A stretch of DNA of 64,000 bases, taken from Candidatus Poribacteria bacterium. Lineage in GTDB: Bacteria > Poribacteria > WGA-4E > WGA-3G. The stretch lies in contig OZ242029.1 in assembly GCA_965205015.1 (NCBI GenBank), positions 2,496,001 to 2,560,000 on the forward strand, read 5' to 3'. Shown here in pieces: positions 5,967 through 59,144 of the stretch; positions within the stretch are counted from its first letter, which is position 1, and every line of letters starts with the position of its first letter. The notes under the pieces were generated by a model. It searched no databases. It was not told where the DNA came from and saw only the letters and a program-made list of their open reading frames with translations. The position numbers were made by a program, and so were the translations under genes.

Positions 5967-6350
5967 TCACGGTGCGAAACTCGATCGCAGTTTGATGCCC
6001 CAGCGTCCCGCTTCGTAGGTTAAGACGTAGAGCGATTCGTAGGAGGCAATGATCGTGCCATCGGCGCGATAGCGTGTGAACTGCGTGTCAACATGGACTT
6101 TAGATGCTGAGATATGGACAATATTGCGTCTGTCCCAACCACTATGGTGCCAGCCACGTGCAGTTAAGTTCTCTCTTATTCGCGCCCCATCCTGCTCACC
6201 CGGTTCGTTGAGGATTCGCATGTTGCCAGACGCAAGACGGTAATGCGGAAAGTGAAACGTTTTTTCCCATGCAACTATATCGAGACGATTAAATGCCGCC
6301 ATCCACGTGTCAAGCACTTCTATGATTTCAGCTTCGATTTTTTCTTTCAC
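5967..6350 (-). CDS. NTF2/SnoaL-like fold small protein
   Basis: WMAAFNRLD...FHFPHYRL...FTRYRADG...SLYVLTYEAGRWGIK; GTG start with GAGGTGA RBS. Confidence 0.75.
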   Translation of the reverse strand: MKEKIEAEIIEVLDTWMAAFNRLDIVAWEKTFHFPHYRLASGNMRILNEPGEQDGARIRENLTARGWHHSGWDRRNIVHISASKVHVDTQFTRYRADGTIIASYESLYVLTYEAGRWGIKLRSSFAP

Positions 6351-6374
6351 TGTTTCACCTCAAATAGATATTAC

Positions 6375-6801
6375 CATTGATTCTTGCGTGAAAGCCCTAT
6401 CCTTTAGGTTAGGGATGAAACGCTTTTTCCTTGACTTTTTTCTCTAAAAAGTGGTATAATGCGCTTAGCACTTGGATAGGAATGTCACCTCTCTCGCTTG
6501 AGAGAGTCCTATCCTCACCAGTGATATGGTGTGTGAGTGCGAAGTGCGACACCACTCTAAACTACATTTTGGGTATCGTTCCTGTAAGACGAATGCGGAG
6601 TAATGTCCCTACGCCTTGTATCGGTACCCCCTCATTCATTATTTTGCAGGCTGGGGTACCCTGGACCTAAACCAGATAAAACCGATCTGATTCGGAATAA
6701 GAGCCTGCGGGTGGAGCGATAATAAGACGTTCAACCCTTTAGGGAAGAACGCAATCGCTATGAAGCCGAAGCCCCACGCTTTAGCGTGTGGGTTGTATCA
6801 C
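6375..6801 (+). mobile_element. Non-autonomous IS200/IS605-family element (PATE/MITE-like), no TnpA or TnpB ORF
   Basis: Left: TTAC (6371-6374), then 16 nt, AAAG and hairpin CCCTATCCTTTAGGTTAGGG. Right: GAAG, hairpin CCCCACGCTTTAGCGTGTGGG, ending TCAC (6798-6801). Same geometry as IS608 ends. Confidence 0.85.
6431..6460 (+). promoter_or_regulatory. Sigma70-type promoter inside the IS200/IS605 element
   Basis: TTGACT-18 nt-TATAAT with TG extended -10. Confidence 0.75.
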
Positions 6802-6821
6802 CAAACGTCCGCTATTCTATC
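6693..6821 (+). ncRNA. Putative TnpB omegaRNA (reRNA)-like scaffold plus flanking guide
   Basis: GCCTGCGG...ATAAGAC...GCAATCGCTATGAAGCCGAAGCCCCACGCTTTAGCGTGTGGG..TCAC resembles IS605 right-end omegaRNA regions; the guide would be the flank CAAACGTCCGCTATTCTATC. Confidence 0.55.
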
Positions 6822-6842
6822 ACAAATTTCCTATGCATACAA
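6814..6842 (-). promoter_or_regulatory. Putative promoter for the NTF2-like gene
   Basis: Minus strand TTGTAT-17 nt-TAGAAT. Confidence 0.5.
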
Positions 6843-6889
6843 GCGGACAATTTTTAACGAAAGTTAGGGATATCAATACAACGACCCGT

Positions 6890-8032
6890 TCACTGTTGAC
6901 TCTCTTTAATAGCACGTTCAAAGGCGCAGAATAGATTTTGAATATCCTGACGCAATAGGGTTGGGTTCACAGTAAGCAGGATACGTCCGGCGTGATCGCT
7001 ATCTGCAGGGGATACAGATACCGAATGCTCCTTAAGCACCTCAACGAAACATGTCCGATCAACACCTGATGCTAACTTCAGCGGAAATATATTAGAACCG
7101 TGCGCAAAACGTTCAACAGTGATGCCCTCCAACGCGTTGATTTTATCAAAAAGTGCGCTTGCCCGTGTCATAGCACGATTGAAACGTGCTTCAAACCCAT
7201 CTATGCCCTGAAGTGCCAATGCCGCCGCAAAGTTTGCTGATGCCAACCCGCCTCCAAACATACGACGGTCGTGATACAACCCATCCGCGAACGCAGCCGT
7301 GCCTGCCAATATTGCCCCGAAGGGTGCCCCAAAATATTTGTATAACGACACGTACACCGTATCAAACAACGCTGCGTAATCCGCTGGCGGAATACCGGTC
7401 GCGCCTGACATCATGTAGAGCCGTGCGCCATCAAGATGACTCCCAATCTGTTTGTCTTGGCAGTAGTCCGTTACCGCCTTCATTTCATCAAACGGCATAA
7501 TCTTCCCCGATTGGCGGCGGACAGGGCTTTCGACCATCACTGCCCCAACCGGTGTGATGACTCTTCCACTCTCTGCCTGCCCTACTGCAGCTTTCAACGT
7601 TTCGAGTGTAAAATAGGGACATCCCTTTGCCAAGGGTATGAGGTTGATATTACTGAGCCGCGTTACACAATCACCACTGTCATTGTAGAGATGACTTTGC
7701 TCCTGGACGATCGCACGCGGTTTGATGCCGCAGAGTTTTCGGATGGCAAGATGATTGGCGAGCGTACCCGTCGGCATAAAGACCGCCGCCTCCTTGCCCA
7801 ACATTTCAGCGCATTTTTTTTCAAGTTGTTCGACAGTGCCACCAAGGGAATAGGAATCTTCCTTAAGCGTAAATTTTTGATCGAACGCAGCAAGTTCCTG
7901 TAGCATCGTTGAGGGTGATTTCGGTTCTCCGTCTCCTCGAAAGATAACCGTGTTGCTCGGGGGAACATCCGAGATAAGCCTCGTATCGGATCGGAGTAAC
8001 TCGGTAACATGGCGGTCCGTTGTTTCCGTCAA
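6890..8032 (-). CDS. Low-specificity threonine aldolase family PLP enzyme
   Basis: MLGKEAAVFMPTGTLAN, HLDGARL, YVSLYKYFGAPFGAIL (PLP Lys). Confidence 0.85.
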   Translation of the reverse strand: MTETTDRHVTELLRSDTRLISDVPPSNTVIFRGDGEPKSPSTMLQELAAFDQKFTLKEDSYSLGGTVEQLEKKCAEMLGKEAAVFMPTGTLANHLAIRKLCGIKPRAIVQEQSHLYNDSGDCVTRLSNINLIPLAKGCPYFTLETLKAAVGQAESGRVITPVGAVMVESPVRRQSGKIMPFDEMKAVTDYCQDKQIGSHLDGARLYMMSGATGIPPADYAALFDTVYVSLYKYFGAPFGAILAGTAAFADGLYHDRRMFGGGLASANFAAALALQGIDGFEARFNRAMTRASALFDKINALEGITVERFAHGSNIFPLKLASGVDRTCFVEVLKEHSVSVSPADSDHAGRILLTVNPTLLRQDIQNLFCAFERAIKESQQ

Positions 8033-14421: not shown

Positions 14422-16446
14422 ATGCTGACTGTTGAACAACTCATCGCTTGTGGATTGGAAAAAGCAGAAGCATCGAAAATAACCGAAGTCGTCAATCGGA
14501 TATTGAAGGCGCAATCGCCGATTGCCTGTTGGTCCGACATTTCACGCCACAGTCTCACACCACACCACCCGTTCGCACTCCACCAATTGCTTTATGAGAC
14601 GGTATATGCCGATTTTGATAGCGCAACGCACGGGCCACCGCCTGCTTGGTTCCCTACGGACAAAGACATCACCGAAGCAAATATCACCCGTCTAATGGTG
14701 GCTTTAAACCTGAAAACCTACCGTGAACTCCACGCTTGGACGGTGCGGAATCGGGACACGTTTTGGCAGATGATGATCGATGCGTTGGGCATTAAAACGG
14801 TATCTACAAACACCGAGGCACAGCGAGACGCAACAGGAATCGCAACACCCTTTCATGCGCTCAACATCGTCGAGAGCTGCTTCAACACGCCTCCGGAGGC
14901 TATTGCGATTGTTACGCAACGAGAAAACGATGAAGGTCTCACAACATTCACCTATCACGAACTGGAGTTCCTCACCAATCGGGTCGCGAATGGACTTGTC
15001 GAAATCGGTATGAAGCCAGGCGACGCAGTCGCAGTTGATATGCCGATGAACGCTGAATCCGTCGCTATCTATCTGGGGATTGTCAAAGCGGGGTGTGTTG
15101 TTGTTGGGATCGCCGATAGTTTTGCGCCGGACGAGATAGCCACCCGTCTTCGCATCGGTAATGCCAAAGCAATCTTCACACAGGATTACATCAACAGGGC
15201 AGGTAAACGTCTTCCGTTGTATGAGAAAGTGATCGTCGCGAATGCTCCGAAAGCCATTGTTTCTTCATACAAGGGTCGGGACAGCGTCGCACGGATCCAA
15301 CGCGAAAGTGATATGACATGGGATAGTTTCCTGAGTGATACAGATGCCTTTACCGCCGTTCCGTGCCCTCCGGATGCCCATACCAATATCCTCTTTTCCT
15401 CTGGGACCACTGGTGAACCGAAGGCGATCCCTTGGACACATACCACCCCGATCAAATGTGCAGCGGATGCCTACCTACACCACGACATTCATCCCGGCGA
15501 TGTGCTTGCGTGGCCGACGAACCTCGGTTGGATGATGGGACCGTGGCTCATCTACGCCAGCCTCATCAACAAAGCCACTATTGCCCTATATGATGGCGTT
15601 CCGACAGGACGCGACTTCGGGGTCTTTGTCCAGAACGCCAAGGTCAGCATGCTTGGTGTCGTTCCTACCCTCGTTCGCGCGTGGAAAAATACGGAATGTA
15701 TGCACGGGGTCGACTGGCAGGCAATCCGAGCCTTCAGTTCAACGGGTGAATGTTCTAACCCAGAAGAAATGCTTTATCTGATGTCTTTGGCGGGTTATAA
15801 ACCGGTGATAGAGTATTGCGGCGGCACCGAGATCGGAGGCGGATATGTCACCGGCACGCGGGTGCAACCTGCTGTCCCTTCGACCTTTACAACGCCGGCA
15901 CTCGGTTTAGATTTCCTACTTTATGATGATGGAATTCCCTCTGATAACGGCGAAGTTTTCATCGTCCCACCCTCCCTTGGGCTCTCTACGAGCCTGCTCA
16001 ATGCCGATCACAATGAAGTCTACTTTGCCGGGACACCGCGTCCTGATCTGCGCCGGCACGGCGATGCGCTTGAACGGTTCGCGGAAGGTTATTACCGCAT
16101 TCACGGGCGCGTTGATGATACGATGAACCTCAGTGGGATCAAGGTGAGTTCCGCAGAGATAGAGGAGGTGCTTAATGTCGTTAGCGGGGTCCAAGAGACA
16201 GCAGCGGTTGCGGTTTCACCGAAAGATGGCGGTCCCAGCCAACTCGTCATTTACGCCGTACTGGCAGCATCGGCGTCCGAACCGACAAAGCAGGAGATTC
16301 ACGAGGCATTGCAAACTGCGCTTTCCGGGCATCTCAATCCACTGTTCAGAATTCACGATGTCGTCATCGTGGATGCGCTGCCACGAACCGCGTCTAATAA
16401 AATTATGCGCCGCATTTTACGCACCGGAAATTTCACTAAAAATTGA
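14422..16446 (+). CDS. AMP-dependent acyl-CoA synthetase (acetyl-CoA synthetase-like)
   Basis: ILFSSGTTGEPK, STGE, YCGGTEIGG, GRVDD, LPRTASNKIMRR. Confidence 0.92.
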   Translation: MLTVEQLIACGLEKAEASKITEVVNRILKAQSPIACWSDISRHSLTPHHPFALHQLLYETVYADFDSATHGPPPAWFPTDKDITEANITRLMVALNLKTYRELHAWTVRNRDTFWQMMIDALGIKTVSTNTEAQRDATGIATPFHALNIVESCFNTPPEAIAIVTQRENDEGLTTFTYHELEFLTNRVANGLVEIGMKPGDAVAVDMPMNAESVAIYLGIVKAGCVVVGIADSFAPDEIATRLRIGNAKAIFTQDYINRAGKRLPLYEKVIVANAPKAIVSSYKGRDSVARIQRESDMTWDSFLSDTDAFTAVPCPPDAHTNILFSSGTTGEPKAIPWTHTTPIKCAADAYLHHDIHPGDVLAWPTNLGWMMGPWLIYASLINKATIALYDGVPTGRDFGVFVQNAKVSMLGVVPTLVRAWKNTECMHGVDWQAIRAFSSTGECSNPEEMLYLMSLAGYKPVIEYCGGTEIGGGYVTGTRVQPAVPSTFTTPALGLDFLLYDDGIPSDNGEVFIVPPSLGLSTSLLNADHNEVYFAGTPRPDLRRHGDALERFAEGYYRIHGRVDDTMNLSGIKVSSAEIEEVLNVVSGVQETAAVAVSPKDGGPSQLVIYAVLAASASEPTKQEIHEALQTALSGHLNPLFRIHDVVIVDALPRTASNKIMRRILRTGNFTKN

Positions 16447-58271: not shown

Positions 58272-59144
58272 TTACCCGCGCCAATTCAGGTTGATGCTGG
58301 TGTAGCCGTGTGTGTATTCGTGAAAGTGCGACGGTAAGTCCGCTAAGAACTGTCTTCCTTCTTCTGGGATCTCCCATGGAATATCGATGTGGTGGTCCCG
58401 TCTCCGAAAACCGACGCCGCACGACAACCGAATTTCATCGATCTGGTTCGGAAATGCACCGTGATACGTCCGATGCGCAAATACAATCATGTCCCCCGGA
58501 TTCGTGAACAGTGGCACCAATCCTGGAATATCAAATCCTACATAAGGTTTTTCTTCTTCACCGATCTTATAGAAGGAGCGTTTGTCTGCTGTCAAGTTGA
58601 AGCCTTCGGGACCTTCCCAGTTCTCAACGTGTGAATTCTCAATAACACATAAACCGCCGTGTTCTGGACGAGAACCCGTCAGGTAGAACCATTTACCTGA
58701 GGGCCAAAATCCACGGTTCAGAACATCACCGGAATTTTTGGGGGCATCTGTTGAAAACCCGCACCAGTCCGTGTGCCATGCGACAGGTTGAGAGCCGGGC
58801 ATCCGAATGATAGCGGCAGATCGGTGGAGGGTCAATTCCTTTGTGCCAATCAGGTGCCGATGGATTTTCATAAAGGGTTCGTATCCCATCAGTTGCCAAG
58901 CCCCGGGTCCAGACTCAATCCACGCGTGTCGGGTGCTACTTTGTCCGTGCTCCAATTCTCTTTTCGGATCTGTGCCATCGAAGACGGCTTTTTTTAAACT
59001 GTCGACCAGGTCTGGAGGCAGGACATCTTTGATAATCGCGAAGCCGTGTGCCTCAAGACATTCGGACACGAGAGAGAGTTGATCGGTTTCAAACTCGTAA
59101 GTGTAGTCAAGTTCAGGTTTCTGAATCTGTAGATATTCTTTCAT
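58272..59144 (-). CDS. PhyH-family dioxygenase
   Basis: LEAHGFAII, AWHTD, GGLCVIENSH, PGDMIVF..RTYHG..PN...R. Confidence 0.88.
   Translation of the reverse strand: MKEYLQIQKPELDYTYEFETDQLSLVSECLEAHGFAIIKDVLPPDLVDSLKKAVFDGTDPKRELEHGQSSTRHAWIESGPGAWQLMGYEPFMKIHRHLIGTKELTLHRSAAIIRMPGSQPVAWHTDWCGFSTDAPKNSGDVLNRGFWPSGKWFYLTGSRPEHGGLCVIENSHVENWEGPEGFNLTADKRSFYKIGEEEKPYVGFDIPGLVPLFTNPGDMIVFAHRTYHGAFPNQIDEIRLSCGVGFRRRDHHIDIPWEIPEEGRQFLADLPSHFHEYTHGYTSINLNWRG

Follow-up and report, generated by a model that had tools for sequence, protein, structure and literature searches.

A 64,000-nt stretch of the contig OZ242029.1 from a Candidatus Poribacteria bacterium (the window) carries at positions 6375–6801 a non-autonomous, PATE-like element of the IS200/IS605 family, whose internal unit is probably a self-promoted precursor of an omegaRNA used by TnpB in trans. 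By homology the element belongs to a Poribacteria-wide IS200/IS605-family lineage, the full-length members of which are about 1.46 kb long and encode a TnpB protein of 370 amino acids (aa). In an initial annotation, made from the letters of the window, the region 6431–6700 had been described as a strong promoter driving a multi-hairpin RNA inside a mobile element, at the place where tnpA or tnpB would lie, and this location is borne out. We consider it likely that the region 6431–6700 corresponds to the predicted internal transcription unit of the element. The unit would consist of the family's sigma-70 promoter, a leader of about 95 nt that is homologous to the 5′ untranslated region (UTR) of tnpB, a middle domain of about 60 nt, and an omegaRNA scaffold extending to position 6801. 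Of the two interpretations offered in the annotation, the long 5′ extension of an omegaRNA would hold if the whole unit is made as one transcript, although the scaffold itself already begins at about 6641, inside the region. The other, a cargo noncoding RNA, does not fit in the sense of foreign cargo, because the promoter and the first ~95 nt are the family's own tnpB promoter and 5′ leader.

The insertion and its family

Two minus-strand genes, which were defined by an open reading frame (ORF) listing and Pfam matches (Table 1), flank the 540-nt gap in which the region is located. When the 127-aa protein encoded by one of these genes was used as a query, 19 syntenic Poribacteria loci were obtained. 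The blastn comparison of the gap with these loci showed that the two gap edges alone were in common, and that the sequence 6417–6640 of the window was absent from all 19 of them. In six aligned loci the gap collapsed to about 110 nt, and the extra block was present only in the window. The empty site in the relatives reads ...ATATTAC followed directly by CAAACGTCC, which starts with CAAACG, while in the window TTAC is followed by the element, which ends with ...TATCAC at 6801 and is in turn followed by CAAACGTCC. The comparison of these junctions defines an element of 427 nt inserted with no target duplication, the borders of which are uncertain by at most 2 nt, as CA is common to both junctions. 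A contig from one RNA-library run joins 6367 to 6795 and omits 427 nt; it is the empty form in a relative. The sequences of 22 other copies of the family diverge right after the terminal TATCAC, and the remaining TTAC-type copies likewise begin directly after TTAC, which matches the target motif of IS608. The two subterminal hairpins form a direct repeat with 81% identity over 16 nt, and the same hairpin is present at the left end of full-length copies. A discrete insertion with a corresponding empty site, TTAC on its 5′ side, no duplication, similar subterminal hairpins at both ends and no protein-coding gene are together the features of a PATE-like derivative of the IS200/IS605 family.

Table 1. 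Positions of the element, its predicted parts and its neighbors in the window
Feature	Position	Strand	Basis
TTAC target/transposon-adjacent motif, directly 5′ of the element	6371-6374	+	empty site and other TTAC-type copies
tnpB-less IS200/IS605-family element (PATE-like), 427 nt	6375-6801	+	empty sites, contig join, flank divergence
Left-end subterminal imperfect hairpin, presumed TnpA recognition site	6395-6414	+	likeness to right-end hairpin and to full-length left ends
Sigma-70-type promoter, TTGACT-18-TATAAT, extended -10 TG	6431-6460	+	11/12 consensus matches
Predicted leader domain	6462-6556	+	covariation, 21 gene-less copies and covariance-model matches
Leader P1, closing helix, begins a few bases downstream of the -10 hexamer	6468-73/6535-40	+
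Leader P2, GGATAGGA/TCCTATCC	6474-81/6507-14	+
Leader pseudoknot, 7 bp, P2-P3 bulge to P4 loop	6482-88/6521-27	+
Leader P3, CTCTCTC/GAGAGAG	6489-95/6500-06	+
Leader P4, short hairpin	6516-19/6528-31	+
Second copy of the P1 3′ strand	6542-47	+
Leader P5 hairpin	6543-46/6553-56	+
Candidate middle domain: 7-bp closing stem 6572-78/6622-28, inner GCG/CGC stem 6595-97/6612-14	6572-6628	+	RNAalifold and pair counts
Predicted omegaRNA (reRNA) scaffold homolog, including last 9 tnpB codons and stop (6644-6670)	6641-6801	+	identity to full-length 3′ ends and consensus fold
Right-end subterminal hairpin	6772-6792	+	inverted repeat and consensus fold; 5 pairs changed on both sides
Predicted guide segment, flanking DNA	6802-6821	+	right flank equals empty site after TTAC
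127-aa NTF2-like ORF, GTG start	5967-6350	-	ORF listing and Pfam
Beta-eliminating-lyase family ORF	6890-8032	-	ORF listing and Pfam

A full-length tnpB element was found in a related genome (locus L019, positions 1–1420) at the identical TTAC site. Its left end is clearly unlike that of the window element (about 80% identity over 66 nt, flank included), and its right end is lost at the contig start; it follows that there were either two independent insertions at the TTAC site or a replacement of one element by the other. By their left flanks, the copies fall into two target-motif classes, each with its own left-end type. The TTAC class comprises the window copy, L041, L043, L044, L019, L049, and L056, and the TTTAAC/TTAAC class comprises L072, L073, L075, L082, L090, L095, and L100.

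The 370-aa ORF of L019 matches OrfB_IS605 and Cas12f1-like_TNB in Pfam, which identifies it as TnpB. When the element was compared with five related genomes, 9–37 matches per genome were obtained, among which four groups can be distinguished: gene-less copies of nearly full length (for example L041, 87% identical over 415 nt); gene-less copies that are more diverged; many matches of about 160 nt to 6641–6800, located at the 3′ ends of ~1.46-kb tnpB elements; and many matches of about 100 nt to the right end alone. The last group consists of solo copies of the scaffold's right-end half (query 6703–6800), which are present in dozens per genome, with up to 37 element matches in genome G004. The full-length copies contain, in this order, the left-end hairpin, the promoter at the same place, the ~95-nt 5′ UTR, the 370-aa tnpB gene, and a right-end region homologous to 6641–6801, and their tnpB stop codon is located about 127–130 nt before the element end. 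The relic of tnpB in the window corresponds to its last nine codons (ILQAGVPWT) at 6644–6670, with the stop at 6668–6670.

The gene-less copies form a separate lineage, distinguished by a leader sequence type of its own, by the extra hairpin P5, and by a middle domain that was not seen in full-length copies; its members are found at unrelated sites, and their flanks differ. In a second gene-less type (L058, L079, L081, L085, L086, and others) another insert takes the place of the middle domain. Some members are decayed, as L087, L093, and L099 carry nested insertions in the scaffold or the middle domain, and L042 is a 5′-truncated copy. The novel part of the element, 6461–6645, gave matches in 35 of the 175 Poribacteria genomes, and often there were several in one genome. 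The TnpB family matched 131 of the 175, and all 35 genomes with the leader-plus-middle part were among them, although this count reflects co-occurrence among related genomes and is not an independent test. Genes of Y1 transposases (PF01797) were present in each of the five related genomes tested, and in L156 and L158 tnpA is located directly upstream of tnpB; the family comprises tnpA–tnpB, tnpB-only, and protein-less members. In 12 TnpB sequences the RuvC-type D, E, D columns, presumably the catalytic residues, were invariant. Because the tnpB family occurs in all 35 genomes, Y1 genes in all five tested, and the RuvC-type columns are invariant, the supply of TnpB in trans is possible.

The omegaRNA scaffold, the promoter, and coding potential

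The sequence 6641–6801 is 82–88% identical to the 3′ ends of most full-length copies, and 73–78% identical to those of three more diverged ones. The consensus fold derived from 23 copies with and without tnpB contains 42 pairs, 20 of them with compensatory changes, and ends in the right-end hairpin. With its homology to the region overlapping the 3′ end of tnpB and its conserved secondary structure, the predicted scaffold has the position and behavior of a TnpB omegaRNA. An extra hairpin of about 23 nt inside the second hairpin of the scaffold was observed in L043, L044, L054, L055, L063, L064, and L068 (alignment columns 50–72), in tnpB-bearing and gene-less elements alike. The right flank of the element could be used as a guide against a TTAC-flanked target; we took the length of this predicted guide from published TnpB systems. 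In the empty sites L002, L003, and L005 the letters after TTAC are the same as the right flank in the window for at least the first 11 nt, and in L006, L001, and L008 one to four positions differ from it.

The sigma-70-type promoter noted in the initial annotation is present, including a TG before the −10 hexamer. The 64-kb window contains seven sites with at least 11 of 12 consensus matches, while 0.69 were expected from 100 first-order Markov simulations; a looser promoter scan gave one site versus 2.5 expected and was uninformative. The other six near-consensus sites (at least 11/12) are located at 16443, 25724, and 59298 on the plus strand and at 58595, 49728, and 30112 on the minus strand. 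Among 32 gene-less-type leaders, 25 are preceded by a promoter that matches the consensus at 10 or more of 12 positions and ends 7–10 nt before the leader, and in full-length copies a promoter is found at the same position ahead of tnpB.

The annotation had also stated that there was no credible ORF in this region. This statement needs some qualification: a frame of about 79–83 codons is open from 6431 to 6670, but it has no Pfam match and is not conserved. That this 79-aa frame is a small protein gene has next to no chance of being correct, even though the frame is open in the window: its start would lie inside the −35 hexamer, in the type-A gene-less relatives that have the window's stop codon the frame is closed 21–34 codons before that stop, and type-A copies differ by insertions and deletions that are not multiples of three. 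A decayed tnpB was considered as well. The tblastn search with the family's TnpB gave nothing in 6375–6801 at E ≤ 10, and blastn of 6417–6640 against the full-length copy L019 gave no match, which rules out a recognizable one. Because the tblastn search was negative and the frame is closed in relatives, the region is neither a gene nor a recognizable decayed tnpB.

The leader and the middle domain

The structure of the leader was analyzed in a MAFFT alignment of 21 gene-less copies, which was not fitted to the structure, with 500 shuffles as a control. The data showed that 90% of cells pair, as compared to 74% in the shuffles, none of which (0/500) reached the observed value. Changes on both sides were found in 22 of 37 pairs (112 cells), and the shuffle and slid-partner controls were far below this. 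The pseudoknot, in which the bulge between P2 and P3 pairs with the loop of P4, was paired in 98.6% of cells with six of seven pairs covarying, the P2 helices were 95–96% and P3 98% paired, and all six pairs of the main P3 helix had changes on both sides. The pairing was lower for P1 (77%) and P5 (58%) and weaker in the subgroup of the window, which in part reflects the alignment register, as two subgroups are out of register. A model built from the gene-less copies scores the window at 92.5 bits. Hence, covariation strongly supports a predicted leader fold consisting of a three-way junction with a 7-bp loop–bulge pseudoknot.

Some of the stems proposed in the initial annotation were consistent with this fold. 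Both inverted repeats that correspond to P2 and P3 are present and conserved by pair counts. The TGGTGT/ACACCA repeat (6527–6532/6549–6554) and the inverted repeat 6623–6630/6653–6660 can also be read from the letters, but they do not behave as conserved stems. For the former 488 of 500 shuffles pair as well and it competes with P4 and P5, while for the latter 281 of 500 shuffles pair as well and it competes with 6572–6578/6622–6628. In place of these two stems the data favor the pseudoknot, the hairpin P4, and the long-range stem 6572–6578/6622–6628.

The 5′ UTRs in front of tnpB share the layout of the gene-less leader but differ from it in sequence. In 17 tnpB leaders 97.5% of cells were paired and six of seven pseudoknot pairs covaried. 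The survey was extended to the 80 best tnpB loci from a collection of species-representative genomes (50–89% protein identity), all of which are labeled as Poribacteria except for one labeled as an uncultured bacterium. A model built from the tnpB leaders matched directly before the ATG in 61 of these 80 best loci. In the resulting 61-sequence alignment the pseudoknot, which is not contained in the model used, was 95% paired, as compared to 61% in shuffles, and all seven of its pairs covaried. By pair counts against shuffles, covariation among homologs is clear for the gene-less leader, for the closing stem of the middle domain described below, and for the pseudoknot of the tnpB leaders. The 19 loci without a leader match include the TnpB clade at 55–57% identity (L146–L162), in most of which a smaller, different leader was seen at positions ~600–703; it does not match the tnpB-leader model, and in it, by eye, a hairpin loop pairs with a downstream 7-mer. 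In two of the 19 loci tnpA lies immediately upstream, and another three are truncated or altered copies.

The two leader types are homologous, at a distance that is still detectable. The gene-less model matched the tnpB leaders of L065, L067, L057, L070, and L046 with E values from 2e-6 to 2.4e-4, and the tnpB-leader model matched the window at 6462–6556 with 33.5 bits (E 5.4e-8) with filters off. Both types have the apex motif CGCTTG/CGCAAG in P3 and the TGG...ACC junction letters, and in both the P1 3′ strand is directly followed by a second copy of the same strand. The window has each of the parts of this motif, namely P1 to P4, the 7-bp pseudoknot, and the duplicated P1 3′ strand, placed directly downstream of the element promoter. 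In the tnpB leaders the variable positions of the P1 5′ strand covary with both 3′ copies, and the alternative helix is 91–92.5% paired, as compared to 76–82% in shuffles, with none of the 500 as high. This suggests that two mutually exclusive helices could be under selection, as in a switch. Where tnpB is present, the second of the two P1 3′ strands ends 8–10 nt before the ATG, and no Shine-Dalgarno sequence is visible there, while in gene-less copies it can pair downstream instead, as the hairpin P5.

The middle domain is closed by a 7-bp stem, which was 98% paired in 17 type-A copies. Three of the seven outer pairs changed on both sides (19 cells), and none of 500 shuffles was as high. Among the copies compared, this predicted domain is specific to the gene-less lineage and was not found in full-length elements. 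When it was compared by hand with the last 90 nt of tnpB, only about 10 extra similar bases were seen upstream of 6641, and because there are so few of them we do not claim its descent from coding sequence.

These covariation data also bear on whether the element is a decaying relic, in which an internal deletion took tnpB, the RNA has no role, and the conservation reflects recent descent. We regard this as unlikely. The lack of a good promoter in 7 of the 32 gene-less-type leaders would fit a relic, as would the nested insertions and the truncated copy mentioned above, and the many solo right-end fragments of ~100 nt. On the other hand, the gene-less copies constitute a lineage with its own leader type, P5, and middle domain, which occurs in 35 of the 175 genomes with multiple copies in some. 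Moreover, because paired positions changed on both sides within this lineage, in 112 leader cells and 19 middle-domain cells, the structure would have been under selection after the loss of tnpB.

The promoter-plus-leader module was also seen ahead of ORFs other than tnpB, in L088 (1497–2032) and L091 (217–1604), where the ORFs encode a hydrophobic protein of 117 aa and a protein of 333 aa, respectively. These two loci have in common another motif of about 50 nt, located ahead of the ORF. It may be that the leader is a portable module for expression.

The occurrence of the same leader type in L088 and L091 could also point to a host-directed or element-independent RNA, in which the leader and the middle domain act as a small RNA, or an antisense RNA against neighboring genes is made from the outward promoter. 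The location of the element would allow this, as 24 nt separate the element from the GTG start of the 127-aa gene, upstream of which it lies in the opposite orientation; its promoter points at the 3′ end of the lyase-family gene on the opposite strand, and no terminator was found between this promoter and the lyase-family gene. With this position and an outward promoter, effects on both neighboring genes are possible. The copies, however, occupy unrelated sites, no conserved target or neighbor was seen among them, and in every case the omegaRNA scaffold and the right end form the last part of the conserved unit, which makes a host-directed role decidedly improbable in our estimate.

The initial annotation did not recognize the RNA family, and no Rfam 15 family reached its gathering score in the window. 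At E ≤ 10, the only match in 6200–7000 was a chance one to rne-II at 6920–7000, outside the element, and the elements in 13 related loci matched no Rfam family at E ≤ 1. No score near the threshold was obtained for IS605-orfB-I (RF03065), HEARO, group I introns, ribozymes, or riboswitches, and a scan for tRNA and tmRNA found none. A match to group II intron domain V/VI (RF00029, 68.4 bits, above gathering) was observed in L088 at 330–406 on the minus strand, about 1.1 kb from the leader and unrelated to it. A three-way junction with a long-range pairing between a loop and a bulge is the architecture of several riboswitch and ribozyme classes, and the leader resembles them also in having few conserved single-stranded bases. 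In spite of this likeness, it is very unlikely that the RNA belongs to a known structured class, such as an IStron group I intron, a self-cleaving ribozyme, a riboswitch, or the IS605-orfB motifs of Rfam, given the negative Rfam searches; a promoter located internally and directly ahead of the fold does not fit an intron, either.

Proposed mechanism and relation to known systems

TnpB proteins process their own RNA. In the mechanism that we favor for the gene-less elements, the promoter would give rise to one RNA extending through the right end into the flank, and TnpB made from full-length copies elsewhere in the genome would bind the scaffold and trim the 5′ part. The flank-derived guide would lead TnpB to the TTAC-preceded empty site, so that a chromosome without the element would be cut and then repaired from the copy still carrying it. 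The leader would most likely protect the 5′ end of the RNA, which is the simplest role for it in gene-less copies because it is predicted to close on the RNA 5′ end and to form a compact knot; in tnpB-bearing copies it may also serve as a translational switch. According to passages of the preprint of Meers et al. (10.1101/2023.03.14.532601), PATEs "often encode omegaRNAs" on which TnpB of other elements would act in trans, and cut-and-repair homing by such TnpB is the model given there for omegaRNA-bearing PATEs.

A further interpretation, which we hold tentatively and find doubtful as a whole, is that the leader could be a hitherto undescribed second RNA component of TnpB (OMEGA) elements, a structural switch that would set the translation of TnpB, possibly in response to TnpB, and that would be kept in gene-less elements, together with the added hairpin and middle domain, for making or stabilizing the guide RNA. 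If it is correct, the gene-less elements would be dedicated, self-promoted guide-RNA genes.

The orientation of the unit was judged from several kinds of data. The fold of 6467–6800 is stronger than that of shuffled sequences (z −3.94), and the same is true of the opposite strand (z −3.61); because both strands beat the shuffles, the folding energy does not give the strand. The plus strand is favored by the predicted promoter orientation and by the excess of G-U over A-C cells, with counts of 80 versus 34 for the tnpB leaders and 19 versus 0 for the middle domain.

Several points weigh against a self-promoted omegaRNA precursor acting with TnpB in trans. The G-U and A-C cells in gene-less leaders are equal in number (35 to 35), and, with both strands folding well, the strand evidence is modest. 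The shuffle control ignores kinship, and related sequences can beat shuffles without any structure, although the slid-partner controls do support the leader structure in gene-less and tnpB leaders. With default filters the tnpB-leader model found none of the 21 gene-less leaders, so the two leader types are distant. The search for a 3′ end of the unit found no terminator or defined end. A matching TnpB in the host of the window itself is expected from related genomes only. The four RNA-library runs consist of contigs, which cannot give starts, ends, strand, or level. The contigs leave 6370–6510 uncovered, which is no evidence of silence, and the very high summed depth at 6652–6792 is not evidence of expression, since contigs from every family copy and organism add up in it and DNA may be present in the libraries.

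IS200/IS605 derivatives that carry omegaRNAs but no protein gene have already been published. As far as the passages of the preprint describe them (Meers et al., 10.1101/2023.03.14.532601), they share with the window element the ends with subterminal hairpins, the lack of a protein gene, a short target motif without duplication, the right-end omegaRNA scaffold, and a dependence, predicted for the window element, on TnpA and TnpB in trans. In contrast to them, the window element keeps the tnpB promoter and the ~95-nt pseudoknotted leader and has gained the ~60-nt middle domain; because the leader and the middle domain precede it, the scaffold makes up the 3′ third of a predicted transcript of about 335 nt. 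No description of the promoter–leader module was found in the text passages of Meers et al. (10.1101/2023.03.14.532601).

As in tnpB-only elements of the ISDra2 and ISGst type (IS1341-type), the full-length copies of the family have a TnpB of ~370 aa and an omegaRNA that extends from the last tnpB codons to the right end, but the Poribacteria family has a conserved structured 5′ UTR before tnpB, and the window copy has no tnpB. The IS605-orfB-I motif (RF03065) and related orfB motifs of Rfam are likewise structured RNAs near orfB (tnpB) of IS605, of which the leader is not a member. In the 5′ UTR of IS200 tnpA a stem–loop hides the ribosome-binding site, and the leader is likewise located in a transposon mRNA, where its fold could limit translation. 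It differs from the IS200 case in preceding tnpB and not tnpA, in combining a three-way junction, a pseudoknot, and a duplicated strand, and in being kept where nothing is left to translate. Searches of the open-access literature, without figures or supplements, on tnpB leaders, on TnpB untranslated regions and autoregulation, and on Poribacteria with TnpB gave nothing on a tnpB leader, and none of the papers searched named both Poribacteria and TnpB. The promoter–leader module, its pseudoknot, the duplicated and alternatively pairing strand, and their retention together with the middle domain in a gene-less lineage appear to be undescribed.

TnpB is the ancestor of Cas12 and is under development as a compact genome editor. 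On the control of nuclease and guide-RNA output by TnpB elements themselves, nothing was found in the literature searched. The Poribacteria lineage offers a conserved pseudoknotted leader before most of the sampled tnpB genes (61/80), with signs of two alternative helices, and a sub-lineage that lacks the nuclease gene while having the promoter, the leader, and the guide scaffold. Should RNA stability or translation be under the control of the leader, it would add a new layer of regulation to OMEGA systems and could be considered as a part for guide-RNA expression. If the gene-less copies use TnpB in trans, they would be natural guide-only selfish elements in an uncultivated phylum of sponge symbionts.

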